Part shown: piece after piece, positions 1 to 22,392 of the stretch | Layout of the letters: every line of letters starts with the position of its first letter | How positions within the stretch are numbered: position 1 is the first letter of the stretch | Sequence record: SRR31156797_962 | Length of the DNA stretch: 64,000 nucleotides | Direction: 5' to 3' (one strand) | Position numbers and translations under genes: made by a program | Notes under the pieces: generated by a model | What the model was told of the DNA's origin: nothing | What the model saw: the letters and a program-made list of their open reading frames with translations, nothing else | The model's database searches: none

Positions 1-27
1 GGGGTTCGAATCCCTCCTGGCCTGCCA
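1..27 (+). tRNA. 3' fragment of a tRNA, most likely tRNA-Trp (truncated by window edge)
   Basis: GGGG-TTCGAAT-CCCTC T-arm, acceptor 3' strand CTGGCCT, discriminator G, encoded CCA. U72 plus G73 fit tRNA-Trp identity elements; the anticodon is not visible. Confidence 0.8.
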
Positions 28-63
28 TTTATCACTTCAAAAAAAGCGAACAAGCTACAATTC

Positions 64-702
64 ATGTTCGACATCGCCAATACAATCAAAGAAATAAGCA
101 TCCTTGCTTTACCTTTTCTTCTGGCAATTACCTGCCATGAGGCCGCTCACGGCTTCGCCGCTTATCTTCTTGGTGATCCTACGGCTAAACAGGCCGGACG
201 CCTTACCTTGAATCCCGTAAAACATCTTGATCCCATGGGAACCCTTGCTCTTGTGCTGACCCGCATGATCGGCTGGGCTAAACCTGTTCCGGTCAATCCA
301 ATGTATTTTAAAAATCCGCAGCGGGATATGATGATTGTCGCTTTGGCTGGTCCGGCGGCAAACATGACACTTGCGGTAATGTTCTCAATTGTCGTAAAGG
401 TGATTCTTTCACTTGATGTGAATTCCATGTCGCCGTTGATGCTCAAGATTCTTGAGCCTTCAGTGATGATTGCCAATGCGGGGGTCATAATCAATCTGGC
501 TTTGTGCTTTTTTAATCTGCTGCCTATTCCTCCGTTGGATGGAAGTAAGATTCTCGCCGGATTTATGCCTCGTGAGGCCGCATTCAAGTTTATGTCGTTC
601 CGGTACGGGTTCATTATCGTGATCGTGCTGGCAATGCTCGGACTGCTCGGCAGGATAATCAGTCCGGCCATGAGTTTTTTCTATAATTTTCTGGTCCACT
701 AG
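64..702 (+). CDS. Site-2 protease family (M50) membrane metalloprotease
   Basis: HEAAH zinc motif, NLLPIPPLDG motif, several TM helices. Confidence 0.93.
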   Translation: MFDIANTIKEISILALPFLLAITCHEAAHGFAAYLLGDPTAKQAGRLTLNPVKHLDPMGTLALVLTRMIGWAKPVPVNPMYFKNPQRDMMIVALAGPAANMTLAVMFSIVVKVILSLDVNSMSPLMLKILEPSVMIANAGVIINLALCFFNLLPIPPLDGSKILAGFMPREAAFKFMSFRYGFIIVIVLAMLGLLGRIISPAMSFFYNFLVH

Positions 703-729
703 GACCGCCAAGCATACAAGATTTTTAAA

Positions 730-1725
730 ATGAGTAAGACAAACAATCGCATAGTTTCAGGCATGAGGCCCACCGGACGTTTGCACCTAGGGCATTACTT
801 TGGTGTTCTGGTCAACTGGGTCAGGATTCAGGAAGATCACGAATGTTATTTCTTTGTTGCCGACTGGCATGCTATGACCAGTGAATATTCCGATCCTCGC
901 AAGATTCAGGGCTTTGTACCCGAACTGGTTAAAGACTGGATTGCCGCAGGTCTTGATCCTGAAAAATGTGTGATTTTCCACCAGTCTCAGGTCAAAGAAC
1001 ACATTGAGCTTCACTTGATTCTGTCCATGCTCACTCCGCTGGGCTGGTTGGAAAGGAACCCCACATACAAGGAACTCAAGCAGGAGCTGGTTCAGAAGGA
1101 ACTGAATACTTATGGTTTCCTCGGCTATCCTGTGCTCATGGCTTCAGATATCCTCATGTACAAACCTTCGCAGGTTCCTGTGGGGCAGGATCAGCTTCCT
1201 CATCTGGAGTTGGCTCGTGAGATTGCCCGTCGTTTTAACCATCTTAATGGCGAATATTTTCCTGAGCCGAAAGCTCTGCTTACTGAAGATGCAAAGCTGC
1301 CCGGACTTGACGGTCGTAAGATGTCAAAGAGCTACAATAACGGTATTTATCTTGGCGAACCTATGGATGAGGTTAAGCCCAAGGTTATGTCCATGCTTAC
1401 CGACAAAAACAGACTGCGTAAGTCCGATCCGGGCGATCCTGAAGTCTGTAACCTTTATCCTTATCACAAGCTGCTCACCGACGCAGAAACTTGTGCTGAG
1501 ATAGAGGAAGGCTGCCGTAATGCAAGTCGTGGTTGCGTGGAATGTAAGAAGTTACTGGCTGAAAACATGGCCAAGTTCCTTGAGCCCATGCAGGAACGCC
1601 GCCGTCATCTGGATGAGAATCCCCAGCTTGTTTGGGATATCCTCCACGAAGGCACTGCCAGGGCACAGGCCAAAGCCAAAGAGAACATGGATGAAATCCG
1701 TGAGCGGATCGGCTTCAAGTTCTAA
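730..1725 (+). CDS. trpS: Tryptophan--tRNA ligase
   Basis: SGMRPTGRLHLGHY (HIGH-like), VPVGQDQ, KMSKS. Confidence 0.97.
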   Translation: MSKTNNRIVSGMRPTGRLHLGHYFGVLVNWVRIQEDHECYFFVADWHAMTSEYSDPRKIQGFVPELVKDWIAAGLDPEKCVIFHQSQVKEHIELHLILSMLTPLGWLERNPTYKELKQELVQKELNTYGFLGYPVLMASDILMYKPSQVPVGQDQLPHLELAREIARRFNHLNGEYFPEPKALLTEDAKLPGLDGRKMSKSYNNGIYLGEPMDEVKPKVMSMLTDKNRLRKSDPGDPEVCNLYPYHKLLTDAETCAEIEEGCRNASRGCVECKKLLAENMAKFLEPMQERRRHLDENPQLVWDILHEGTARAQAKAKENMDEIRERIGFKF

Positions 1726-1746
1726 GTTATATTTTACAAAGACATT

Positions 1747-1786
1747 AAAAAATCCCCTGTTGCAGATGCAGCAGGGGATTTTTTTT
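1747..1786. terminator. Bidirectional intrinsic terminator between trpS and the convergent metal operon
   Basis: AAAAAATCCCCTGTTGC-AGAT-GCAGCAGGGGATTTTTTTT hairpin with A/T tracts on both sides. Confidence 0.85.
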
Positions 1787-1797
1787 ATTTGTTAGGC

Positions 1798-2001
1798 TTA
1801 ATTATCATTTGCTTTATCCACCACCTGGCGGATTTCCGGGAGACATCAGCGCCTTTTGGGGTTCTTCTCTGCGCACCGGCATTCCCCGTTTTTCTTTTCA
1901 GTCAGGATGCGCTCAAAAATGGTTGATCTTCCGTGCTGGAGAATATCTTTTTTGATGTCATCTGAGGTATATCCAAAACAGTAGCAAATAAGTTGCGTCA
2001 T
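1798..2001 (-). CDS. Small CopZ-like/BFD-like [2Fe-2S] protein, probable selenoprotein (in-frame TGA at 1846-1848, codon 52); 67 aa
   Basis: Manual translation MTQLICYCFGYTSDDIKKDILQHGRSTIFERILTEKKNGECRCAEKNPKRR-U-CLPEIRQVVDKANDN. CYCF...CxC...NPxxx(U)C pattern and a downstream SECIS-like hairpin. Not in the ORF track. Confidence 0.85.
1816..1833 (-). promoter_or_regulatory. Candidate bacterial SECIS element
   Basis: Minus-strand ATCCGCC-AGGT-GGTGGAT, a 7-bp stem (one G-U) with AGGU loop, starting 12 nt after the TGA. Confidence 0.7.
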
Positions 2002-2014
2002 TTCTTGGGGCCGC

Positions 2015-2551
2015 CTAGAACTTATTTTTAATAAAATCTGTTATTGCCTGAATGGCAGACTTTTTATGTTCAGTCACTTCTTCTTTAGTTTCCCACCATT
2101 GCAGGTCGCTGAATTCCAGCGGCAGTCGTAACGTGAGAAAGGGCAGGAAAAAACGAACTACATTTGCTTTTGAGGACCCTTTTACGGAATCAAAGTGGAA
2201 AAAAACTTCGCCGATGAACCATGCCCGGTCCTTCTGGGAAGCTGGCTCCGGGGGCTTGATGTACATGAAGTCCGGGTCTGTCTCGGATTTAAGTTCGCTG
2301 TCATGAAAACTGGCGAATAGCTCCAGTACTTGCTTGCGGATCAGTTTGTCACCGTAGACATCTACGATGAAAGTGAACTTAAGGAATCCGGTTTCCGGGG
2401 TCAGGTTGTGGCGTGATATTTTAAGCACCCCATCCTTGCGTCTGGATTCGTCATTATCAAGGAAAAGGTCAAAGGCGCAAAAGCCGATAAAGTTTTCCGC
2501 TCCGCGCAGTTCTTCCAACTGTGCTTCAATTCCGGCAGTACTTTTATTCAT
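2015..2551 (-). CDS. Hypothetical protein (probable start MNKSTAG at 2551)
   Basis: Long ORF co-oriented within the operon; its ATG overlaps the end of the upstream small ORF. Confidence 0.7.
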   Translation of the reverse strand: MNKSTAGIEAQLEELRGAENFIGFCAFDLFLDNDESRRKDGVLKISRHNLTPETGFLKFTFIVDVYGDKLIRKQVLELFASFHDSELKSETDPDFMYIKPPEPASQKDRAWFIGEVFFHFDSVKGSSKANVVRFFLPFLTLRLPLEFSDLQWWETKEEVTEHKKSAIQAITDFIKNKF

Positions 2552-2690
2552 TGCTGTCCATCTCTTTTTTTTCTCTTTCATCACGGGTTTCGGTTTGGCC
2601 CAACCCGTTTCCGGTTTTCTTTACCATCTTGAAGATGGCAAAGATGATGACCAGCATGATAATTATTGCTTCTACGCCTTCACCTGTCAT
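2544..2690 (-). CDS. Small single-TM protein, 48 aa (MTGEGVEAIIIMLVIIFAIFKMVKKTGNGLGQTETRDEREKKEMDSNE)
   Basis: Strong RBS (CAGGAG) just before the ATG, hydrophobic helix followed by KMVKK, end overlaps the next start; below the ORF-track size cutoff. Confidence 0.7.
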   Translation of the reverse strand: MTGEGVEAIIIMLVIIFAIFKMVKKTGNGLGQTETRDEREKKEMDSNE

Positions 2691-2722
2691 AGTTTACTCC
2701 TGTTCCCCGATGATGGGGGCAG

Positions 2723-3958
2723 TTAGTGTGAATGTCCGTGCAATGATTCACCTTTCACTAAAGCTGTTACCTTGGGAATAGCGATTAAGGCAAGCAGAAT
2801 GAGTGCACTAATGGTGTAGAGAAGGTTGTGTCCATGTTCCTCACCTGATTGAACCCAGTCGGTGATACTTAGTCCCATCGAATAATAGAGCCAGTTGGCG
2901 AACATACCCAGTGCGAGCGAGCAGGCGATGATGGACCCGAGGTAGATAAAAGCGGAGCGCTTGCCTAGAAGCTTTGCGACTACGGTGAATGAAGCTGCAT
3001 TGGTTGCCGGACCGGCCAACAGAAATACCAGTGCCGCACCGGGTGAGAGTCCTTTCAGGGCTAAAGCTGCAGCAATGGGGGTAGATGCCGTAGCGCAGAC
3101 GTAGAGCGGAATAGCGGCAGCCAGCATGATCAGCAGAGGGAAGAAACCATCACCAAGGTTGCGCTCAATGAAACCGTCGGGGATGAGTGCACCGAATATT
3201 CCGGCTAAAAGTACGCCACCGAGGAACCAGAGGCCGATATCCTGCAGCAGGTTACCAAAGGAATATTTCATACCGAAAGCCATTTTACCACTGAAGGAAT
3301 CAGGGCGCTCGTCATCATGGGAATGACCGCAGCCGCAGCCGGAATCTGAACAGCTTGTTTGGTCATGATTGTGATTCTCGTGAGAGCTGCATTCGCAGTC
3401 TGAGTCGGAGCAGCTGCCGAGTTCGTGATTTTGGGCGTCATGAGAATCACACCCGCAGCCGGATAATTCTTGCACGTTCTCCATTTTGGGAAGGAGGATT
3501 GCGTCCGGGATCAGTTTGGGTGCTTCCTTGGGGCTTCCGTTTTTCTTTTCATTCCTATCCACCATTATTCCCGCCACTACAGCAGTGAAAAATGCCGCAA
3601 AAGGCCTGAAAACGGCCATTACCGGATCAAGCAGGGCATAGGTTACGGCTATCGAGTCGACTCCTGTTTCTGGAGTCGAAATCAGGAATGAGGTTGTAGC
3701 TCCTTTGCTGGCTCCTTGCTGGCGGAGCTGGGCAGCAGCAGGTATAACTCCGCAGCTGCATAAAGGGATAGGTACTCCGAGAATGGAAGCCTTAAGCACG
3801 TCGGAGGTTTTGCCGGAACCGAGGTTTTTGGAAATGAATTCCGGCCCGACAAATGCTTTGAGCAGTCCTGCAATAAAGAATCCCAAGAGCATGAAAGGTG
3901 CGGACTCCAGCAGCACCTCCCACGATTCCTGCCCAATGGAAAGTAGTATATCTATCAT
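2723..3958 (-). CDS. SO_0444-type (DUF318/ArsP-like) heavy-metal permease with Cys/His-rich loop
   Basis: PLCSCGVIP, STPETGVDS, YVCATASTP and AGPATN motifs; internal Cys/His/Asp-rich segment. Confidence 0.9.
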   Translation of the reverse strand: MIDILLSIGQESWEVLLESAPFMLLGFFIAGLLKAFVGPEFISKNLGSGKTSDVLKASILGVPIPLCSCGVIPAAAQLRQQGASKGATTSFLISTPETGVDSIAVTYALLDPVMAVFRPFAAFFTAVVAGIMVDRNEKKNGSPKEAPKLIPDAILLPKMENVQELSGCGCDSHDAQNHELGSCSDSDCECSSHENHNHDQTSCSDSGCGCGHSHDDERPDSFSGKMAFGMKYSFGNLLQDIGLWFLGGVLLAGIFGALIPDGFIERNLGDGFFPLLIMLAAAIPLYVCATASTPIAAALALKGLSPGAALVFLLAGPATNAASFTVVAKLLGKRSAFIYLGSIIACSLALGMFANWLYYSMGLSITDWVQSGEEHGHNLLYTISALILLALIAIPKVTALVKGESLHGHSH

Positions 3959-4345
3959 TTATTTATCTCCCAGCGGAACTCCGCAGCCATCGCCCTGCAT
4001 GTGGGCCAGAGCTGTCTGCATGATGATTTCCACATGTTTATCATTAAGGCTGTAGATAGCCCTGCGTCCGTGTTTTTCAAAACGGACCATACGCGCCGTT
4101 CTCAGGATTCTCAGTTGATGCGAAACAGCAGAATGGGACATCTCCAGAAGTTCTGACAGATCGCAGACGCAAAGGTCGTTTATGGAAAGGGCGTGCAGAA
4201 TTTTTATTCTGACCGGTTCACCCAGAATTTTGAAAGTTGCAGCCAAATCATTCAATGTTTCATTTGGACAGCTTTTGCTATTAACGAGTTCCACAGCTCC
4301 CGGAGTTGGGTTGTGGGAGTTGCAGCAGTCAGAGTTATTTGTCAT
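3959..4345 (-). CDS. ArsR/SmtB-family metal-sensing repressor
   Basis: LCVCDL and SAVSHQLRIL winged HTH; N-terminal CC; alpha5-like DKH-x10-H. Confidence 0.95.
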   Translation of the reverse strand: MTNNSDCCNSHNPTPGAVELVNSKSCPNETLNDLAATFKILGEPVRIKILHALSINDLCVCDLSELLEMSHSAVSHQLRILRTARMVRFEKHGRRAIYSLNDKHVEIIMQTALAHMQGDGCGVPLGDK

Positions 4346-4364
4346 GGTTTTATCCTATATGTGT

Positions 4365-4388
4365 ATATATGAACAACTGTTCATATAT
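4365..4388. promoter_or_regulatory. SmtB/ArsR-type operator (11-2-11 inverted repeat)
   Basis: ATATATGAACA-AC-TGTTCATATAT perfect palindrome about 20 nt upstream of the repressor ATG. Confidence 0.85.
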
Positions 4389-4566
4389 TAAGAGTCAGCT
4401 GTGCAAAGTCAAGGAAAATCGTTTCTATTTATGCGCTATAGGAGTAAATTGCTACGATAAGGGAGATATATAATTTAATTTTGGGACCTAGTAGATTATC
4501 CTGAATGGATAAGAATAAGTCTCTATCTGTCTGAGGCTAAAGGTAAATTTATGCTAGGAGTTTGGT

Positions 4567-4878
4567 TTGGTCGATTCATCTCGTAACATCGTCTATGTGG
4601 AACCTGATCTATTTGATCTGGTACCCGTACTCATCGAGTCTCTCTCTGCAGAACTTTGTGAGATTGTCACAGGATCGGATAGTGCTGATTATCCTCTTGT
4701 TCGTGAGAAGGTCCATTCCTCAAAAGGTGCGGCCCTGACATTTGGCTTTGGTGCTTATGCGGAAGAGCTTGATAATCTCAGGCAGTTTGTAATTGATCAG
4801 GATGATGCCCGCATGCGACAGAGTATAGATAGGCTGAAGTTGCTTCTTGAAACAGCTGTTTTTGCTCCTGCCGCGTAG
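4567..4878 (+). CDS. Stand-alone Hpt phosphotransfer protein
   Basis: VHSSKGAA Hpt motif; AGGAG RBS before TTG. Confidence 0.8.
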   Translation: MVDSSRNIVYVEPDLFDLVPVLIESLSAELCEIVTGSDSADYPLVREKVHSSKGAALTFGFGAYAEELDNLRQFVIDQDDARMRQSIDRLKLLLETAVFAPAA

Positions 4879-5515
4879 CCAGTATTTCGCTGAGTAACTC
4901 CTGTGTTTTCCGGGCAATGCCCGGAGCCCCGCTTTCCCGTGGACCGGCTACATTCATTATTCTTATATTCTTTGCTGCTATCCATGCACGAACAATGTCT
5001 GCTGCATCCCGGCTGTCTAACGTGATAACGGCAACCGGCTTTCCATGTTTGCGGGCCAGTCGGATGGTCAGTGCGGTCCCTTTGGATTCATTTATTCCGG
5101 GAAAGATAAGTGTACCGTCTGAATCAAGCACGTTTTTTTCCGTCCGTATCCAATATTGCCAGCCAGCAGTTTCCTGCATGTTGTAGCGGGTGGGGATAGG
5201 ACCATCTTCGGCTTTACGCCCTTTCGGACACCAGCCCCGGTGAGGAATTCCATGTTCTATTGCTGCATCCAGAGCTCCACGATCTACACCGGTTTGTCCG
5301 CCGGAAATAATAGTCATTCCTTGAGGCAACAAGTCAGGTCCTTTTGAAAATGAACACTTTGCAGCATCGGATGCTGATCCGCACTTGGGACAGAATAGTG
5401 TAATATTGGCAGGATAGAGGCCCGCTTGCCGATCGAATGTGGTAAGCGGACCTGTATATGAGCATTTTGGGCAATTTGCGTATTTTTTTGTTCCGTATTC
5501 AGTTGGTATTTCCAT
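4778..5515 (-). CDS. Zn-ribbon plus 'putative molybdenum carrier'/circularly permuted YpsA (SLOG) protein
   Basis: Two CPKC motifs, then IISGGQTGVDRGALD, GWCPKGR, RTEKNV and NVAGPRES; probable start MEIP at 5515. Confidence 0.85.
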   Translation of the reverse strand: MEIPTEYGTKKYANCPKCSYTGPLTTFDRQAGLYPANITLFCPKCGSASDAAKCSFSKGPDLLPQGMTIISGGQTGVDRGALDAAIEHGIPHRGWCPKGRKAEDGPIPTRYNMQETAGWQYWIRTEKNVLDSDGTLIFPGINESKGTALTIRLARKHGKPVAVITLDSRDAADIVRAWIAAKNIRIMNVAGPRESGAPGIARKTQELLSEILATRQEQKQLFQEATSAYLYSVACGHHPDQLQTA

Positions 5516-5528
5516 AGAAAGAAGGATA

Positions 5529-8027
5529 TCAGCTTTCTGGTAAAATAACAATCTGCACATCAGGTGTTTGTGAAAGACGATTTAGGTCGAGGCTGGCACT
5601 TAGCTCAGCAGTGATAAAGATCGTCCCCTTGAAGCCTGATGAAACACGGGTCCACAGATCTGCTGGGGGGCAGTAGTTGATTTTGCCCGGGCAGATGACC
5701 AGCAGGTTCTCTGTGGGCGGTTCGTTCTCTTTGCCCAGCACCATACAGGGGTCTGACATGATCAGGTCTTCTTGCAGCAGCCCGTGGATGGTTTCCACCA
5801 GTCTTTTTTCATCAATGGGTTTGATAAGTGCAGCATCTCCTCCGGCCTGTTGACCTTCGGCCAGCGCGCTGATGACAATTACCGGAATATGCCTAGTGGA
5901 TGGGTCCTGACGCAGGACTGTAATGGCTTGCGCCCCGTCCATGACCGGCATTTTAAGGTCCATGGTGATCAATTGCGGCATGCGTTTTTTTGCTGTTTCC
6001 ACCGCTTCTTGCCCGTTAGTGACGGTTATGATCCTGTAGCCTTCCTCTTCAAGTACCTGCGAGAGGAATTCATTCAGTGCCGGATCATCGTCAGCAACCA
6101 TGATTAATGGACTGTTCGCACTTCCGGGATGCCCTTCCCTGAGAGCTGTTTTAGTGATGCGGGGCGGAATTTGTTTCTCTTCGGACGGCGCCCCAATGGC
6201 CAGAGTAAAGTGGAAGGAGCTTCCTTCGCCGAGTTTACTGTCTACCCAGATGCGGCCTTTATGGTGGTCAACAATTTGTTTGCAGATGGGTAAGCCTAGT
6301 CCGGTTCCTTTGGGTTTACCGGTCAGGGTGTCCCCGGCCTGCTTAAATCGTTGAAATATTTTTTTCTGGTCCTCAGGGGAAATACCACTTCCCGTATCAC
6401 TGACGCTGACCATGATTTCATCATCATGAGACCTTGCGGTACAAGTGATGAAGCCGGAGTCAGTGAACTTCACGGCATTTGATATGAGGTTGACCAGCAC
6501 CTGCATTACCCGGTCGCGATCTCCGTACATGGTGGGGATGTTTTTATCCACATCTACTGCCATTTCCAGATCTTGTGCTTTCCATAAAGGTATTGTGGTC
6601 TGCACCGATGTTTCAATAACTTCAGCAATTTCTATGGGTACTGTTTTCCAGTCGATTTTACCGGATTCCATTTTAGCGATATCCAGTACATCGTTGATGA
6701 GTTCGGTAAGTCGTTGGCCTTCTGAAACAATGATGCCGATATTGTCCTGCACCTGATTGATAGCTCGTTGTGTTTTCTTGTCAGGGGCCTCGCAGACCGG
6801 GAAAACAGATTTTTCGAGTTTTTTCTTGATGATTTTCGCAAAACCAAGAATGGAAGTCATGGGTGTGCGCAGTTCATGGGAGACTGTGGAAATGAAGTCG
6901 GTCTTCAGATTATCCACTTCCTTTTCATAAGTAATGTCACGGACGAGGATAACTGCACCTAGGCAGACATTAGGGGTATCTCCATGGTCCATCTTATGAA
7001 TCGGGGTGGCTACGGCTTTACCTGTTCTGCGCCCGGAGAGTTCGATTTCAGAGGAATATACTTCGTGTTCGCAGCCTTTTACCAGTTCGAAAAGGGCAGT
7101 CATTTCATCGGGGAAGAAAGTCCTGATGTCTTTGCCCCGGAGTTCATTCTCAGTGACTCCGAACAGGTCTCCCAGAGTAGGGTTGGTCACAGATATTTTC
7201 CCGTTAATATCCACAACCAGCAGACCGTCCGCTAGGTTGTCCATAATGACTTCCATATAAGTCAGGGTGTCCTGCAGCTCACTGGTGGCGTTGCCAACCG
7301 CCCGTTCAAGTCCTGAAATCAGAGTGGTCAGTTCTTCGGCCATGTTTTTCATGGTTCCGGCAAGCAGTCCTATTTCATCCTTGGAGGTGATTTCAATCTC
7401 CGCGGTAAAGTCATGGGCCGAGAGTTTTTTTGCGTATTCTGTCAACTGGTTGAGCGGTTCCGAGATGCGTTTGACCATCATATAAAGGATAAACACACTT
7501 CCCCAGAAGATGAAAAACATGACCACCTGCAGCTTGGCAATGGCCGCCCATACGTATTTATTGATTATGCCCTTATCCATTCCTACATGAACATATCCAG
7601 CCATTCCGGCAAGGATGGGCTTGGTTATATCTATCACATCACCCATGCCCGGGACTTCCAGTTCGCGGATGGATATTGAGTTGGGATGGATGCTGGTTCC
7701 ACTAAGAATTTCCGGAACTTCAGGCACAAAGGTATGCGAAACGATATCTCCGTTTGAATCCTGCACGTAAACGTAAGCGGCCCCGTCGCTGTCTTTGAAC
7801 TGGTCGATCATGGACTGGATAGTGGAGGCATCCCTGTTAAGTAGAATTTCCACACTGGAGCTGGCTATGCTGCTGGCAATGGCTTTGCCCTTGCTTACAT
7901 ATTCATCAACCATGTGATTGTGCAGGGTCAGAGCTGATACAAGGGACATGGAAGTGGAGATTACCCCGAAAAGGATGAAGTTCAGGAGCAGGGTTTTCTG
8001 GAATATTTTGGACATTCTCATTTTCAT
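5529..8027 (-). CDS. Hybrid sensor histidine kinase (TM-HAMP-PAS-HisKA-HATPase-REC)
   Basis: SHELRTPM H-box, NLISNAVKF, GTGLGL, C-terminal REC (VADDD, MDLKMP); ATGA overlap with the upstream gene. Confidence 0.95.
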   Translation of the reverse strand: MKMRMSKIFQKTLLLNFILFGVISTSMSLVSALTLHNHMVDEYVSKGKAIASSIASSSVEILLNRDASTIQSMIDQFKDSDGAAYVYVQDSNGDIVSHTFVPEVPEILSGTSIHPNSISIRELEVPGMGDVIDITKPILAGMAGYVHVGMDKGIINKYVWAAIAKLQVVMFFIFWGSVFILYMMVKRISEPLNQLTEYAKKLSAHDFTAEIEITSKDEIGLLAGTMKNMAEELTTLISGLERAVGNATSELQDTLTYMEVIMDNLADGLLVVDINGKISVTNPTLGDLFGVTENELRGKDIRTFFPDEMTALFELVKGCEHEVYSSEIELSGRRTGKAVATPIHKMDHGDTPNVCLGAVILVRDITYEKEVDNLKTDFISTVSHELRTPMTSILGFAKIIKKKLEKSVFPVCEAPDKKTQRAINQVQDNIGIIVSEGQRLTELINDVLDIAKMESGKIDWKTVPIEIAEVIETSVQTTIPLWKAQDLEMAVDVDKNIPTMYGDRDRVMQVLVNLISNAVKFTDSGFITCTARSHDDEIMVSVSDTGSGISPEDQKKIFQRFKQAGDTLTGKPKGTGLGLPICKQIVDHHKGRIWVDSKLGEGSSFHFTLAIGAPSEEKQIPPRITKTALREGHPGSANSPLIMVADDDPALNEFLSQVLEEEGYRIITVTNGQEAVETAKKRMPQLITMDLKMPVMDGAQAITVLRQDPSTRHIPVIVISALAEGQQAGGDAALIKPIDEKRLVETIHGLLQEDLIMSDPCMVLGKENEPPTENLLVICPGKINYCPPADLWTRVSSGFKGTIFITAELSASLDLNRLSQTPDVQIVILPES

Positions 8028-9265
8028 TTGCTCCACCTCATCCAATCTTTAAGGGGGACGAATTTTCCGTCCGAAACAGTTGTGTAGTATACTTCGTCAA
8101 GTCCTTGGTGCTTGCCGCGTCCGAAATTAACCTCCGTACCTATCCCGATGTCCAGATTACGGATGGACAGGGTGGCAGCATATATGTTGCCCTCATATTG
8201 GGGCATGGAGACTTTTTCAAGAATCCGGGCCATAACCTTGGCGTTCAGGAACCCTTCAAAGCTGATGAAGCTGTATTGCAGGGGGGTGTAATCCTTGCCG
8301 AATCCTTCCGGCGGCGGTGGTGGATTATTAGTCATGGCTTCGCGGTATTCGCGAACAGCCGGAAGGCTGGTGTCCTCGTAGCTTGGGACTGTCTGGGAAT
8401 TGATCAGGTCTTTAGTATAATTTTTACCTGTTTTGCGGCTCAGACCGTCCAGCAGCTCCAGCATATTTTCACTGCCCACAAATGAAAGGTTGCATATGGG
8501 AACGTTTATCCCGGCATCTCTGGCATCGCGCACAAATGCAGCGTATGCTTCATAGGCTCCCACAGAAATTATCGCGTCGGGCTTGCCTTTTTTTATGATT
8601 TCCACTTGTTCGTGCATGGATTCATTGAAAGAGGCACCACGTCTATATGTGCTTTCGGCAATGATATCCATGCCTTTTTCCTTCAGGGCTTTTCTGATCC
8701 CGTCCCAACCGCTTCTGCCGTATGCATCGGCCTGATAGAATACAGCCACCCGGTGGCGCCCGATCATATAAAGGTTGTGGACCAACCCCCATGTTTCCTG
8801 TCGGTAGGATGCCCGTAGGTTGAAGACATATTCTTCGTAAGGAAATTCTCTTTGTGGTTGAGCTCCGGTAAAGGGGAAGAAGAGGTATTCCGGCTCTTGG
8901 GAATTGAAATGTTTGATAACCGGAAGTACGCGGGTCACTGTCGGGGTGCCCACGTAGTTGAAAAGACAGTCTACTTTATCTTTTTCCACCAGCTTGATGG
9001 TGTTGCGGATGGCAGGTTCGGGGTTATATCCATCATCCATGAACTTGATGACGACCTTGTGCCCGTTTATTCCGCCCTGTGCATTGACATGATTGAAATA
9101 AGCCATCGAACCCCGGTAAAGCTCGATTCCCAAGCCTTTGCTTGGGCCAGTAAAGGCCGCGGACATTCCAAGCAGGAAGGTCTTGTGTTTTTCTGCGGCG
9201 GCTGAGGGACAGAGCAGCAGGGAAGTCAGCAGGAGCAATACTAGCGTGGATAAGGCGTTATACAT
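8024..9265 (-). CDS. Periplasmic ligand-binding protein (type I, LivJ-like)
   Basis: Signal peptide; GMSAAFTG, GGING, DDGYNP, YVGTPT, RASY. Confidence 0.9.
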   Translation of the reverse strand: MYNALSTLVLLLLTSLLLCPSAAAEKHKTFLLGMSAAFTGPSKGLGIELYRGSMAYFNHVNAQGGINGHKVVIKFMDDGYNPEPAIRNTIKLVEKDKVDCLFNYVGTPTVTRVLPVIKHFNSQEPEYLFFPFTGAQPQREFPYEEYVFNLRASYRQETWGLVHNLYMIGRHRVAVFYQADAYGRSGWDGIRKALKEKGMDIIAESTYRRGASFNESMHEQVEIIKKGKPDAIISVGAYEAYAAFVRDARDAGINVPICNLSFVGSENMLELLDGLSRKTGKNYTKDLINSQTVPSYEDTSLPAVREYREAMTNNPPPPPEGFGKDYTPLQYSFISFEGFLNAKVMARILEKVSMPQYEGNIYAATLSIRNLDIGIGTEVNFGRGKHQGLDEVYYTTVSDGKFVPLKDWMRWSK

Positions 9266-18375: not shown

Positions 18376-21300
18376 CTATATTAATACCAATTCATCCTGA
18401 CGGGTGGCTCTTTCAAGTTCTTTCTTGAAATCTTTACGCCACTTCGGTCCGCCGATGAGTTCTGCCATGTATTCCACGGTGTGGAGTACACGGTTTTGTT
18501 TTTTCAAGGTATCCATGTTGCGTTTAATACCCACTTTACAGGACGGGCAGCCGACCAGTACCGGGGTCTCCTTGCCATGCCCCTGAAGATCGTTCTTGAG
18601 CTGTCCGCCTTTGCGGTCGCGCAGCTTGTTATAGATTTCAGGGCTGGTGATGGAGCCGAGGCCGGATTCACCGCAACAGCCGGGGGAGAGTGTTACCTCA
18701 GCACCGAGCATGTCGGCAACTGCTTTTCGGTATATTTCCGGGGCCTTGTTCTTTTTCACATCGGTCCATTCAGTGTGGCAGGAAGCGTGATAAATCACGT
18801 CGCGTGCCGCATTGGCGGTGTTGAAATTGAGGTTGCCCGGGTTCTGGAGCAGATACTGAACCGCATCGCTGCGATTGATGTCGTACCCCAGTTCTTTGAA
18901 TTCATATGATTCAAGGGATTCGCGGCAGGTTCCGCAGGCAGTGATCAGAGTGGAAACCTTCATGCCTGCAATGGAAGCCTTGGCAATGCGGTACTGGATA
19001 TCGCTGATATTGCGGTGACGGTTGGTGTTGTATGCTTCAACACAGCCACTGGCCAGCAGCGGATAACCGCAGCAAAGATGCTTGGCTGGCATGATTACGT
19101 TCACGCCGGACTTGAGCAGCAGGTACAGGGTTGCCATACCGATATCCTTGGAGAACAGGGATGCACCGCAGCCGGGGAAGTAATAAACGCTGTCCGGTGC
19201 CGGGGTATTCTGTAGGAACATGGAACCCTTGTCGAGATTGATGGTCTCGGAAAGGTTTTTGAAATCCATGGCCGGTGTCTTGCTGTGCAGCATGGGGGAT
19301 TCCATGCGTCTGCGCCAGTGACCGGGAACAAGGCCGATAGCCTTGGCCTGTAATCCTGCGGACAGGGACAGAAACTTGGCGGCCTTGGGCAGTCTGCTCT
19401 GCGGGTCCTTGGCAACAAAACCGAGTACGGCATTCTTAATGGGATGTCCGCTGTCCCCTTTGTATTCGAGGAAAGAACGGATCTGGAGTGCGGCTCCTGC
19501 GGAATCGATCTTAATCGGGCAGACCGAGGTGCAGCGGCCACAGGCGGTGCAGTGCTCCATTAGCTTCCTGAGACGGGTCATGAGATCCGGGGAAGGTTCA
19601 CCGCGCTGTACCTGTGAGTAGTAAATAGCTTCAATGAGTGCACCCAGCGCTATGTTCTTGTTGCGCGGATGGTACATGAGTCCTTCTTCCGGGAAGAACA
19701 TGGGGCAGACTTGTTTGCATTTTCCGCAACGGGTACAGGTCTGGATGTTCTGGAGCAACTCCATCAGGTGTTCCTTATCCTTAATGGCAGTCTTGTTCAG
19801 GTCGTTGATGAGCCTGTTGAACGAGAATGTGTATGCCGGAGAAGGGAGATTTCTGCGAGTCAGCTTGCCAGGGTTGAGGATATTGAGCGGGTCCACCTTT
19901 AGCTTGTATGCTTTGATGGCCTCGATCTTTTCCTCGGAAAGGTAATCGATCTTGGTGATCCCGATTCCGTGTTCACCGGAAACTTCACCTTTGAGTTCAA
20001 GGACTTTCTTGAATACATCATCAACTGCTTCGTGGGCACTGTGCAGCATGTCCGGGTCGTTGGAGTTGACCGGGATGTTCACGTGGCAGTTACCGTCACC
20101 CGCATGCATGTGGTTTGCGATGATGATGCGCTGTTCCTTAAGCTTGGCGAGAATCTTGATGATCTTGGAATCCAGCTTGGGGAATTCGTCGCGCAGTTCC
20201 TGAAAAAGGTAATAAACCTGACTTTCAAGTTCTTGGTCGCTCATGTCTTTGCCGGTGATCTTGCCTTTGAGGATGTTAGTGGTCCGTTCTAGAGCCAACT
20301 CAACTTTTGGTTCCTCAATGGGGAAGCCCTGCAGTTCTTTGATGGAAAGCAGTGAACGGCGGTAGATTTTTGCAAGGTAGATCAGGTTCAGGTCTTCAAG
20401 GAAGTCTGAAAAGTCCGGGATAACTTCAAGGGGGATAACGATATCTTCGTTAACCTTGAATCCGGAAGTGCGTTTCGCAATGGCGGAGAGCTTATGTCGG
20501 TCTTCCCAGAAGTGTTCAGCTTCTTTGTCATCGCGTGCAGCAAAGATGTCCACCCCGTCATAGGGTTGGGCAATGGACAGGATGGTGTCCACTGCGCTTT
20601 GCAGAGCGGCTTCATCATCAGAATCCAGCTGCAGGATGAGTACGGAAATAGGGTCACCTTCGTAATTGTCGGACTTCTTAACGTACTTGATGGCCTGTAC
20701 GTACTTGGGACCGAATTCTTCCAGTGCAGAGATTTTTACAAGGTCACCCTCTTCGCGGATGGTATCGCGCAATGCCACTACATCTTTAATAACCAGCATA
20801 GCGTTACGCATGGAGCGGCCGAAGAATTCAAGGCAGAGCACTCTAGAGTTGCTCGGCTTGGGGTAGAGGGCGAAGCAGCATTCGGTGATGATGCCGTCGA
20901 CTCCTTCTTTCTGCACACCGGGCAGGCCGCCGAGGTACTTATTGGTTACGTCTTTACCGAGTCCGGTGGAGCGGATTTCTTCGGCTGTGAGTTCGATAGT
21001 GTCGATAAGACGATCTTTGGAATCGTAGATTTCAAAGGATGCATCCTCGTTGGCGAAAATCTTGTGCCCGGGATGGCCCTTACGGCGCACCTCAATAAGT
21101 TCACCTTTAGGCATAACCATCTTGTAACTGATGATGTTGTCAATGGTACAGCCATATTCAAAGGCAAAGGGGCCGCCTGAGTTTTCGGAAATGTTTCCGC
21201 CAAGGGATGATCCGGCCTTGGATGCAGGGTCCACGGTGAAAAGCACACCTTTTTTGTCAGCAGCATTGATGGCATCAAGGGTGATAACACCTGCCTGTGC

Positions 21301-21918
21301 ACAGAGAGTCATGGCCTCAGTGTCTACGGACAGGATTTTCTTGAAGCGGGCAAGGGAAAGCACTGCTGTGCGGTCAAGGGCCGGGATAGCTCCCCCGGTT
21401 GCCCCGGTTCCGCCGCCGCGGGGGATCAGGCCGAACTGCATTTCATTGGCGAGGCGCACAATGGCCCGGACCTGTTCGGTATCTTCAGGGAAGAGAACCG
21501 CGATGGGCAGTTCAATACGCAGGTCAGTGGCATCAGTTGCGGATTGAACAACTGTGTGCGGATCAAGTCCGATACAGTGCTCGGGCAGGATTTCCTTCAT
21601 CTTTTCGATGAACCTGTCACGGAATTCCATGTCCGCATCCTGCTTGAGCCAGAAGTTTTCTACAGAGCGGGTTAAGCGCTGCGGGTATTCGCCGGAAAGG
21701 GTCGGGCGGGCAAGGGTCAGGGTGCGGGATACTGATTTGCGAACCAGTTCCGGATCAATGAACGGGTTGTAGCGCACAAGGAAAAGCTCCGCTGCGATGC
21801 TTTCCGCAAGGGTGCGCACGTCTTCGGGCCATCCTTTAAATTCAAAGGGATCAAGGCCGAGTACCCTTTGCAGCAGGGCTTCGGCGGGAATAGAAATATG
21901 GGGACCTAATTGAGGCAT
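18376..21918 (-). CDS. FAD-linked oxidase (GlcD/D-lactate dehydrogenase-like) fused to 4Fe-4S and CCG domains
   Basis: PRGGGTG, HAGDGN, GEHGIG, two CxxCxxCxxxCP motifs, CCG motifs; probable start MPQLG. Confidence 0.9.
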   Translation of the reverse strand: MPQLGPHISIPAEALLQRVLGLDPFEFKGWPEDVRTLAESIAAELFLVRYNPFIDPELVRKSVSRTLTLARPTLSGEYPQRLTRSVENFWLKQDADMEFRDRFIEKMKEILPEHCIGLDPHTVVQSATDATDLRIELPIAVLFPEDTEQVRAIVRLANEMQFGLIPRGGGTGATGGAIPALDRTAVLSLARFKKILSVDTEAMTLCAQAGVITLDAINAADKKGVLFTVDPASKAGSSLGGNISENSGGPFAFEYGCTIDNIISYKMVMPKGELIEVRRKGHPGHKIFANEDASFEIYDSKDRLIDTIELTAEEIRSTGLGKDVTNKYLGGLPGVQKEGVDGIITECCFALYPKPSNSRVLCLEFFGRSMRNAMLVIKDVVALRDTIREEGDLVKISALEEFGPKYVQAIKYVKKSDNYEGDPISVLILQLDSDDEAALQSAVDTILSIAQPYDGVDIFAARDDKEAEHFWEDRHKLSAIAKRTSGFKVNEDIVIPLEVIPDFSDFLEDLNLIYLAKIYRRSLLSIKELQGFPIEEPKVELALERTTNILKGKITGKDMSDQELESQVYYLFQELRDEFPKLDSKIIKILAKLKEQRIIIANHMHAGDGNCHVNIPVNSNDPDMLHSAHEAVDDVFKKVLELKGEVSGEHGIGITKIDYLSEEKIEAIKAYKLKVDPLNILNPGKLTRRNLPSPAYTFSFNRLINDLNKTAIKDKEHLMELLQNIQTCTRCGKCKQVCPMFFPEEGLMYHPRNKNIALGALIEAIYYSQVQRGEPSPDLMTRLRKLMEHCTACGRCTSVCPIKIDSAGAALQIRSFLEYKGDSGHPIKNAVLGFVAKDPQSRLPKAAKFLSLSAGLQAKAIGLVPGHWRRRMESPMLHSKTPAMDFKNLSETINLDKGSMFLQNTPAPDSVYYFPGCGASLFSKDIGMATLYLLLKSGVNVIMPAKHLCCGYPLLASGCVEAYNTNRHRNISDIQYRIAKASIAGMKVSTLITACGTCRESLESYEFKELGYDINRSDAVQYLLQNPGNLNFNTANAARDVIYHASCHTEWTDVKKNKAPEIYRKAVADMLGAEVTLSPGCCGESGLGSITSPEIYNKLRDRKGGQLKNDLQGHGKETPVLVGCPSCKVGIKRNMDTLKKQNRVLHTVEYMAELIGGPKWRKDFKKELERATRQDELVLI

Positions 21919-22392
21919 AATTGTCTTACCGTGAATTGTTTTTGTTTTTACAGGCAGGCAGAACACCTTCCTGTGAAGAAAAAAGGGAATATAGTGACCA
22001 CTGTATTTAAAATCAAGTAACTATTTTGCAAAATAATGATTTTTATCAACGTTGTTTATTAAGTTGAATTTGCTAATTCTCTGAAATAATAAGTAAAAAT
22101 TTGAGATGCAGAGGATTAAGAAATGCAAAATAGTTTTTGTTTTTCCGGCATAAAATGTCTTTTGCGTTTGTGGGCGATAGACTTATACGAATGTGCCGGA
22201 CTTCGTTAGATATAATGATGGCTGGGCCGATTGTAAAGGACTGTATGCGGTTAATGCTTGACAGAAACAGTCAAACTGAATGATTATTTCTGCCTCAATA
22301 TTTCTCACAATTGATCGATTCTTAAACTCCATTTCGAAATTCGTAATATAAATATCAAAAATTCATAAATTTGAAAAAGAGAGGGTCTTTTA

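Follow-up and report, generated by a model that had tools for sequence, protein, structure and literature searches.

Does the single in-frame TGA of a short minus-strand reading frame at positions 1798-2001 of sequence record SRR31156797_962 end a protein of 51 residues, or is it read as selenocysteine (Sec, U) within a protein of 67? The question was addressed on the whole stretch of DNA analysed, 64,000 nucleotides in length and referred to here as the window. The frame starts with an ATG at 2001-1999 on the minus strand and runs for 51 codons, which read MTQLICYCFGYT...GECRCAEKNPKRR (residues 1-51 in full: MTQLICYCFGYTSDDIKKDILQHGRSTIFERILTEKKNGECRCAEKNPKRR), up to the TGA at 1848-1846. Directly behind it follow TGT at 1845-1843 (Cys53) and 14 more codons, reading LPEIRQVVDKANDN, before the frame closes with TAA at 1800-1798. 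The TGA is the only one within the 67 codons, which amounts to one Sec per protein. A candidate SECIS-type (selenocysteine insertion sequence) hairpin lies 12 nucleotides 3' of the UGA, within codons 57-62 (1816-1833, minus strand), with a 7-bp stem, AUCCGCC/GGUGGAU, and the loop AGGU. Beyond the TAA, between this frame and trpS (730-1725, plus strand; TIGR00233, 302 bits), an intrinsic terminator hairpin of 17 pairs with T-runs on both strands is located at 1747-1784 and is common to trpS on the plus strand and the operon of the short frame on the minus strand. A preliminary description of the window had proposed a minus-strand frame with an in-frame TGA directly before a Cys codon, the hairpin ATCCGCC-AGGT-GGTGGAT 12 nucleotides past it and a read-through stop just ahead of the terminator, and the coordinates of all three were verified. 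We conclude from translation, family matches, homologues, a structural model and fold matches that 2001-1798 is very probably one gene for a 67-residue selenoprotein, a BFD-like or CopZ-N-terminal-like [2Fe-2S] mini-protein, with the UGA as Sec at position 52. The UGA would be decoded as Sec by SelB and tRNA-Sec, the in-frame hairpin would direct SelB to it, and translation would then run on to the TAA just ahead of the bidirectional terminator.

Homologues were sought with the read-through product (P0001), in which U was replaced by C. A locus from an unrelated metagenome-assembled genome (MAG), L001, was 59% identical through the TGA; it has TGA-TGC at the corresponding codon, and its tail is conserved. 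A six-frame search at E <= 1e-12 of 401 genomes sampled from the phylum of this MAG resulted in 47 matches, of which 43, in 41 genomes, contain a single TGA, one contains two and three contain none. The window and 25 loci make up 26 distinct sequences (L018 duplicates L001), and in all 26 the TGA falls on one and the same alignment position, with TGC or TGT as the next codon and a frame that remains open for 14-31 more codons. Five further loci also have TGA-TGY at the U52 position. A strict motif pattern missed 5 of the 30 loci L010-L039; four loci missed in this way have H-P for N-P and otherwise the same U-C and hairpin, the fifth being L011. The weak matches L043, L044, L045, L047 and L049 fell outside the motif and were left out. 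The peptide past the TGA is conserved as C-[LIVA]-x-[DEH]-[VI]-[RH]-[RQ]-[VLA]-[VA]-[DE..]. In the protein alignment of 25 sequences, C6, C8, F9, I16, D19, S26, I32, G39, C43, N47, P48, U52 and C53 are invariant and C41, D15, I28, G50 and V57 are conserved in at least 90%; C41 is not essential, as Ser replaces it in one sequence. One genome has a second family copy (L048, at G360:C22:6600-12900) that contains two in-frame TGAs, is disturbed in its central part and appears to be decaying, its intact paralogue lying at G360:C42.

Position 52 is occupied by Cys in other members of the family. The three stop-free matches among the 47 are proteins lengthened by an additional N-terminal part and read NPRGRCC, NPSGRCC and NPKGSCC. 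A profile search of 1.84 billion cluster representatives gave 1543 proteins at E <= 0.001, 865 of them at E <= 1e-10. Among the best 150 of the 1543, C-C was found in 46 long forms and in 22 short stand-alone forms, while 60 stop exactly ahead of the U position; W-C, as expected where a gene caller reads TGA as Trp, was found in at least 9 and R-C in 3, the rest being mostly frame-shifted tails or H-P variants. Judged from these sequences, the Sec/Cys pairing at position 52 is of the classic kind. That homologues would have TGA or Cys at codon 52 and conserve what follows it, as had been anticipated, is borne out by the 26 sequences with TGA-TGY together with the C-C forms.

The family assignment was investigated with sequence profiles and a structural model. 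Residues 4-62 match the Pfam family PF04324 (Fer2_BFD) at 22.9 bits (E 1.1e-4), and the close homologue cluster P0004 has a precomputed match to the same family. Two NCBIfam models of CopZ N-terminal domains are matched over their C-terminal ends, namely NF047645 (CopZ_Nterm_CC; 48.5 bits, E 9.8e-13, model positions 86-137 of 138) and NF045877 (CopZ_Nterm_CU, a '(seleno)protein' model; 31 bits, E 2.2e-7, positions 99-159 of 161). A phmmer search of the single protein against the PDB returned one chance-level match only. The family profile gave one credible match to solved structures, the Archaeoglobus fulgidus CopZ N-terminal domain 2hu9_A (E 0.0058, residues 72-124), in which VCYC...C-VVTNPSGRCC aligns to C6-x-C8...C43...NP-x-G-x-U52-C53. 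U52-C53 falls on the final pair of NPSGRCC and the Cys homologues read NPxGxCC, in agreement with the earlier proposal that the CC motif of such domains is UC here. The AlphaFold model built from the 25-sequence alignment had a mean predicted local distance difference test score (pLDDT) of 91.7. Foldseek found no match to it in the PDB at E <= 0.001, with Bfd at the top of the list. In a structural search against representatives the two best matches were Pseudomonas Bfd, 4e6k_G (Z 6.1) and 6e6q_A (Z 5.9), superposed with a root-mean-square deviation (rmsd) of 2.3-2.4 over 51 of 56-57 residues at 26% identity, and 2hu9_B was matched with Z 3.7 and an rmsd of 2.4 over 57 residues; for such a small protein these Z values are modest, but the top matches stand above the unrelated ones. 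Profile and fold matches together identify the product as a BFD-like [2Fe-2S] domain that stands alone and corresponds in type to the C-terminal end of the N-terminal domain of A. fulgidus CopZ. Given the alignment to 2hu9 and the invariance in 25 sequences, C6, C8 and C43 plus one residue of the U52-C53 pair would hold the [2Fe-2S] cluster, and the remaining member of the pair, most probably Sec52, would lie beside it as an exposed and very nucleophilic selenolate. In A. fulgidus CopZ the cluster ligand is reportedly the second Cys of the C-C pair, which corresponds to C53 here.

The hairpin at 1833-1816 is the minimum-free-energy structure of both the 41- and the 71-nucleotide stretches that were folded. 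Bacterial SECIS elements lie a short distance 3' of the UGA and have G or GU in the apical loop, and the preliminary description likened the window's AGGU to the loop of E. coli fdhF; the apical loops of the 26 sequences are AGGU in 8, GGGU in 8, GUGU in 6 and others in 4. Pairs were counted in a gap-free 48-nucleotide alignment of these sequences. In the 7-pair helix 87.9% of cells are paired, compared to 27-58% when the 3' partners are slid by 1-3 columns, and the five inner pairs are intact in every sequence. Pair 21-34 is C-G in 22, U-A in 2 and U-G in 2; pair 23-32 is G-U in 12, G-C in 10 and A-U in 4, and never A-C. The covariation score was 0.233 at a shuffled mean of 0.179, and 1 of 500 shuffles reached that value.

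A number of observations weigh against reading 1798-2001 as a selenoprotein gene. No obvious Shine-Dalgarno sequence precedes the ATG at 2001. Codons 50-51 (1849-1854, minus strand; AAA AGG CGC TGA) encode Arg-Arg, and the window has Arg two residues before Sec where 25 of the 26 sequences compared have Gly. All three family matches lie below the respective cut-offs, which are 26 (gathering score) for PF04324, 100 for NF047645 and 190 for NF045877. The 64-kb window contains no tRNA detected by ARAGORN, no Rfam match at the gathering threshold and no sel gene, and four of the five nearest genomes have no copy of the selenoprotein gene. The hairpin belongs to no Rfam family; a search of 1740-1900 at E <= 10 gave sub-threshold matches only, which were driven by the terminator and none of which was a SECIS. 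The stability of the single hairpin sequence is close to chance, with z values of -0.85 to -1.36 and folds as good or better in 39 of 200 shuffles of the 41-mer and in 20 of 200 shuffles of the 71-mer. Covariation is modest, with changes on both sides in two pairs only, and most stem positions also code for conserved residues (V-R-R/Q-V-V/A-D/E).

As the lone hairpin is not exceptional among shuffled sequences, the case rests on comparison with relatives, and as the stem overlaps conserved codons, synonymous sites were compared too. Third bases of four-fold codons outside the stem had entropies of 1.2-1.96 bits (Gly -13, 1.96; Pro -4, 1.81; Gly -2, 1.49). Within the stem these values were 0.63 at Val +5 (C in 21, T in 4), 0.27 at Arg +6 (C in 21, T in 1) and 0.00 at Val/Ala +9, where all 26 sequences have G. 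At codon +8 the third base falls on the outermost, poorly kept pair beside the loop and is free to vary (1.80 bits). Because synonymous third bases are nearly frozen inside it, the stem is, by this measure, under RNA-level constraint beyond the need of the protein. The hairpin had been expected to recur in relatives, and the five inner pairs and the near-frozen sites confirm that it does. With respect to the unusual Arg, an Arg-Arg pair ahead of the recoded position is also found in a few distant cluster representatives (P0029, P0031, P0034 and P0035) and the variant is therefore probably tolerated; the nearest homologues, P0002 and P0003 (80% identity), read G-R before the stop.

The five genomes nearest to the window by TrpS identity (G570, G475, G409, G519 and G550, at 89, 88, 84, 83 and 82%) were taken as a stand-in for the genome that the window comes from. 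All five contain selA and selB above cut-offs, selD and tRNA-Sec (80-83 bits). The selD gene has one in-frame TGA in each of them, which makes SelD another selenoprotein of this lineage. Of the 401 genomes in the phylum sample, 372 have selB above its cut-off, among them every one of the 41 with the single-TGA form; this co-occurrence agrees with Sec use but discriminates only weakly, as selB is nearly universal there. The sole homologue of the selenoprotein gene among the five nearest genomes is 47% identical, is located elsewhere in its genome and has G-R-U-C plus the hairpin, and in the three nearest genomes that were fetched trpS is not followed by the operon. The gene is dispensable and accessory, being absent from most of the nearest genomes and from the syntenic site in every one of them. 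A composition profile over 1-9000 gave no clear island signal. Metagenome run X2 contains two low-depth contigs, ~88-90% alike to the window, in which the end of trpS is followed directly by that of the hypothetical gene upstream of the selenoprotein gene; 222 and 244 nucleotides (window 1782-2027) are skipped, with 24 and 18 other letters in between. This weakly suggests that there are related strains without the selenoprotein gene at the site itself, the X2 reads having been placed at 85% likeness and belonging to other organisms.

A family of this kind is tabled as '(2Fe-2S)-binding protein (CopZ family) form 1', with the motif GxUC, in reviews of 2026 (PMC13188914) and 2022 (PMC9312934). 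Both reviews cite a 2008 GOS paper for it (PMC2398784), the main text of which contains none of the terms 2Fe-2S, CopZ and BFD. Like the tabled form 1, the window protein has one Sec, placed behind NP-x-G/R-x and followed directly by a conserved Cys, in what is probably a CopZ-N-terminal or BFD-like domain. The domain listed for form 1 is a CopZ-like Fer2_BFD-like domain (cd10141); the window protein matches NF047645, NF045877 and PF04324, each below its cut-off. G-x-U-C, the motif printed for form 1, is found in 25 of the 26 sequences, as ...NPKGRUC... in relatives of the window gene, whereas the window reads R-R-U-C, with Arg for the Gly of the motif. As Arg-Arg before the recoded position is also found in other representatives, the printed motif appears to be looser in nature. 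By these tables the window gene is very probably one more member of an already catalogued selenoprotein family and not a new kind of system; the preliminary description had noted that Sec-containing members have been annotated, and they are listed in both reviews. Current knowledge is not overturned by the find.

The closest known systems differ from the window protein in length, context and placement of Sec. The N-terminal domain of A. fulgidus CopZ (2hu9; NF047645) has the same C-x-C ... C ... N-P-x-G-x-C-C pattern, but it spans ~130 residues, extends further at the N-terminus and is joined to a copper-chaperone domain, whereas the window protein corresponds to its last ~60 residues only, with Sec for the first Cys of the pair. 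The CopZ N-terminal domain binds Zn and a [2Fe-2S] cluster and reduces Cu(II). With its N-terminal part absent and the last ~55 model positions matched, the window protein is placed outside the full-length CopZ-N-terminal equivalogs NF047645 and NF045877. The latter model describes the Csac_0668 family 2Fe-2S cluster-binding (seleno)protein, 'form 2', a CopZ-N-terminal-type selenoprotein with a homologous C-terminal domain; as far as the family is described, Sec is second in its pair (C-U) within ~160 residues, in contrast to U-C within 67 residues in the window. Bfd of Pseudomonas aeruginosa (4e6k, 6e6q; PF04324) shares the helix-rich mini-fold and the N-terminal C-x-C but has neither Sec nor a C-C or U-C pair, and the window family adds a further C-x-C (C41, C43) and the N-P loop. 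A bacterioferritin gene is nowhere near the window selenoprotein gene.

The selenoprotein gene is the last in a minus-strand series that comprises an ArsR/SmtB-type gene, a permease gene, a hypothetical gene and the selenoprotein gene, followed by the terminator. The ArsR/SmtB-type metalloregulator (3959-4345; NF033788, 89.6 bits at a cut-off of 55; PF01022, 59.9 bits) abuts the permease gene and is the probable first gene of the operon. The permease (2723-3958) belongs to the SO_0444 family of Cu/Zn efflux permeases within the ArsP_1 superfamily (NF033936, 454.8 bits at a cut-off of 300; PF03773, 153 bits); its residues ~165-215 form a long loop rich in Cys, His and Asp (CGCDSHDAQNHELGSCSDSDCECSSHENHNHDQTSCSDSGCGCGHSHDDE), by its look a putative metal-binding segment. 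The hypothetical protein is encoded at 2015-2584 by an open reading frame of 189 codons that ends 13 nucleotides from the selenoprotein ATG and matched no family. Its 19 homologues, the best of which is 94% identical, have 177-183 residues, so that its true start is probably an internal Met; the named ones are confined to Maridesulfovibrio and one Desulfovibrio sp. MAG, which places the window in or next to Maridesulfovibrio. Between the permease gene and the hypothetical gene, a 48-codon open reading frame (2544-2690, minus strand) has a product with a hydrophobic stretch and then a charged tail (MTGEGVEAIIIMLVIIFAIFKMVKK...) and may represent a small membrane protein of the operon.

The gene order raises the question of what the selenoprotein does. 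A small redox-active protein might reduce or bind a soft metal or metalloid and work with the efflux permease of the same operon, and this role as redox or soft-metal partner of the permease is proposed tentatively, at clearly less than an even chance. About 5 kb of flank was surveyed at 18 other loci (of 21 considered, the 3 without a motif match were dropped). In four of the 18 (L056, L057, L060 and L061), each from a different genome, the selenoprotein gene adjoins an ArsP_1 permease gene; LMWPc (ArsC-like) genes accompany two of these four, and L057 has ArsR plus a cation-efflux gene. At L001 a heavy-metal-resistance gene (PF13801) is found directly upstream. It counts against the proposed role that the link to metal or metalloid efflux is limited to these four loci and the window, the other 14 having unrelated neighbours such as MFS (major facilitator superfamily) plus flavin mononucleotide reductase, nitroreductase and universal stress proteins. 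On this survey the link to metal or metalloid efflux recurs but is not universal.

The alternative with the most to recommend it accepts the selenoprotein and differs on its role. Sec52 would itself be a cluster ligand, its Fe-Se bond tuning the potential, and the protein would be a plain electron carrier that lies beside a permease gene by coincidence. Its best structural match, Bfd, is an electron-transfer ferredoxin, the 14 loci with unrelated neighbours fit such a carrier, and the hypothetical gene between permease and selenoprotein is also present in a genome that has no selenoprotein gene. Adjacency to ArsP_1 in 4 of 18 loci and the window would, on the other hand, be far above chance for a family of few copies per genome, and the reported ligand in A. 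fulgidus CopZ, the counterpart of C53, also speaks against an Fe-Se bond. We consider the plain carrier unlikely, although it is a serious competitor. A stronger version of the partner role would make the selenoprotein a dedicated cytoplasmic partner of ArsP/SO_0444-type permeases, in which the [2Fe-2S] cluster gives an electron and the exposed selenolate captures a soft metal or (organo)metalloid and hands it over. This version is rather improbable; if true, it would add to detoxification a hitherto undescribed 'metallochaperone' step that depends on selenium and is coupled to redox chemistry. The placement beside ArsR, ArsP/SO_0444 permeases and ArsC-like genes does provide a concrete hypothesis of metal or metalloid handling for a catalogued family, testable in a sulfate reducer that is culturable and non-pathogenic, and it is the only lead here with some novelty.

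The remaining alternatives concern the codon itself. The UGA could be recoded with mostly Cys or Trp inserted, either from Cys-tRNA-Sec at low selenium or through near-cognate read-through, and the short stand-alone C-C forms found among the best 150 representatives are presumably functional. However, 41 genomes, all of which have selB, retain the TGA along with a SelB-type hairpin and frozen synonymous sites, and this joint conservation argues for selection on Sec insertion itself; predominant insertion of another residue is accordingly very unlikely.

An ordinary stop would give a product of 51 residues and leave the downstream conservation to an RNA element only, a terminator or attenuator. 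This is how the gene appears in databases: the four close protein-database homologues, at 67-80% identity, are all exactly 51 residues long and end at the would-be TGA, two of them under the name 'hypothetical protein' of Maridesulfovibrio, and 60 of the best 150 representatives have the same end point. The unexceptional fold of the single hairpin sequence agrees with it as well. A product of 51 residues, however, would be without the invariant Cys53 and therefore without the fourth ligand of the cluster, as provided in 2hu9 and the Cys homologues. Moreover, the stretch past the TGA is conserved as protein in the same frame and is free of stops for 14-31 codons in 26 of 26 sequences, the Cys forms read straight through position 52, and the true terminator lies further downstream. 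An ordinary stop is by this evidence very unlikely indeed, and the short database entries are better explained by gene callers that truncate the gene, as the preliminary description had suspected. Public records miss the selenoprotein gene or cut it to 51 codons, by which the Sec-Cys pair and the last helix are lost. The truncation error is widespread, and the practical value of the find is an annotation fix.

That the TGA is a nonsense mutation, a mark of a decaying pseudogene or a sequencing error in the window is scarcely credible: the gene is dispensable in near relatives, the window copy has the unusual Arg at position -2 and the paralogue at G360:C22 with its two TGAs looks degraded, yet the same TGA is found in 43 of 47 strong matches from 41 genomes, the Arg-Arg variant recurs in other cluster representatives such as P0029, P0031 and P0034, and no difference was observed over 1600-2700 at a depth of 243 in the only sequencing run that holds the whole stretch at near-identity, a run that is probably the source sample and not independent. 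One other run (X9) spans the stretch in a single contig at ~87% likeness, and no RNA run is listed as containing it. The reading of 2001-1798 as one selenoprotein gene with Sec at position 52 is accordingly retained.

Two observations on other genes were made along the way. At L059 the gene directly upstream of the selenoprotein homologue (4759-4992) encodes a 78-residue fragment of the C_GCAxxG_C_C family, which may be a truncated selenoprotein call; this family is listed with Sec members in PMC13188914 and PMC9312934. Within the window, a minus-strand gene at 18376-21966 encodes a 1196-residue fusion of a GlcD-like FAD-linked (flavin adenine dinucleotide) oxidase with a C-terminal Fe-S/CCG-type (LdhH/GlpC-like) part, and this protein has a weak match to the NCBIfam model 'diclust_near_Sec'.

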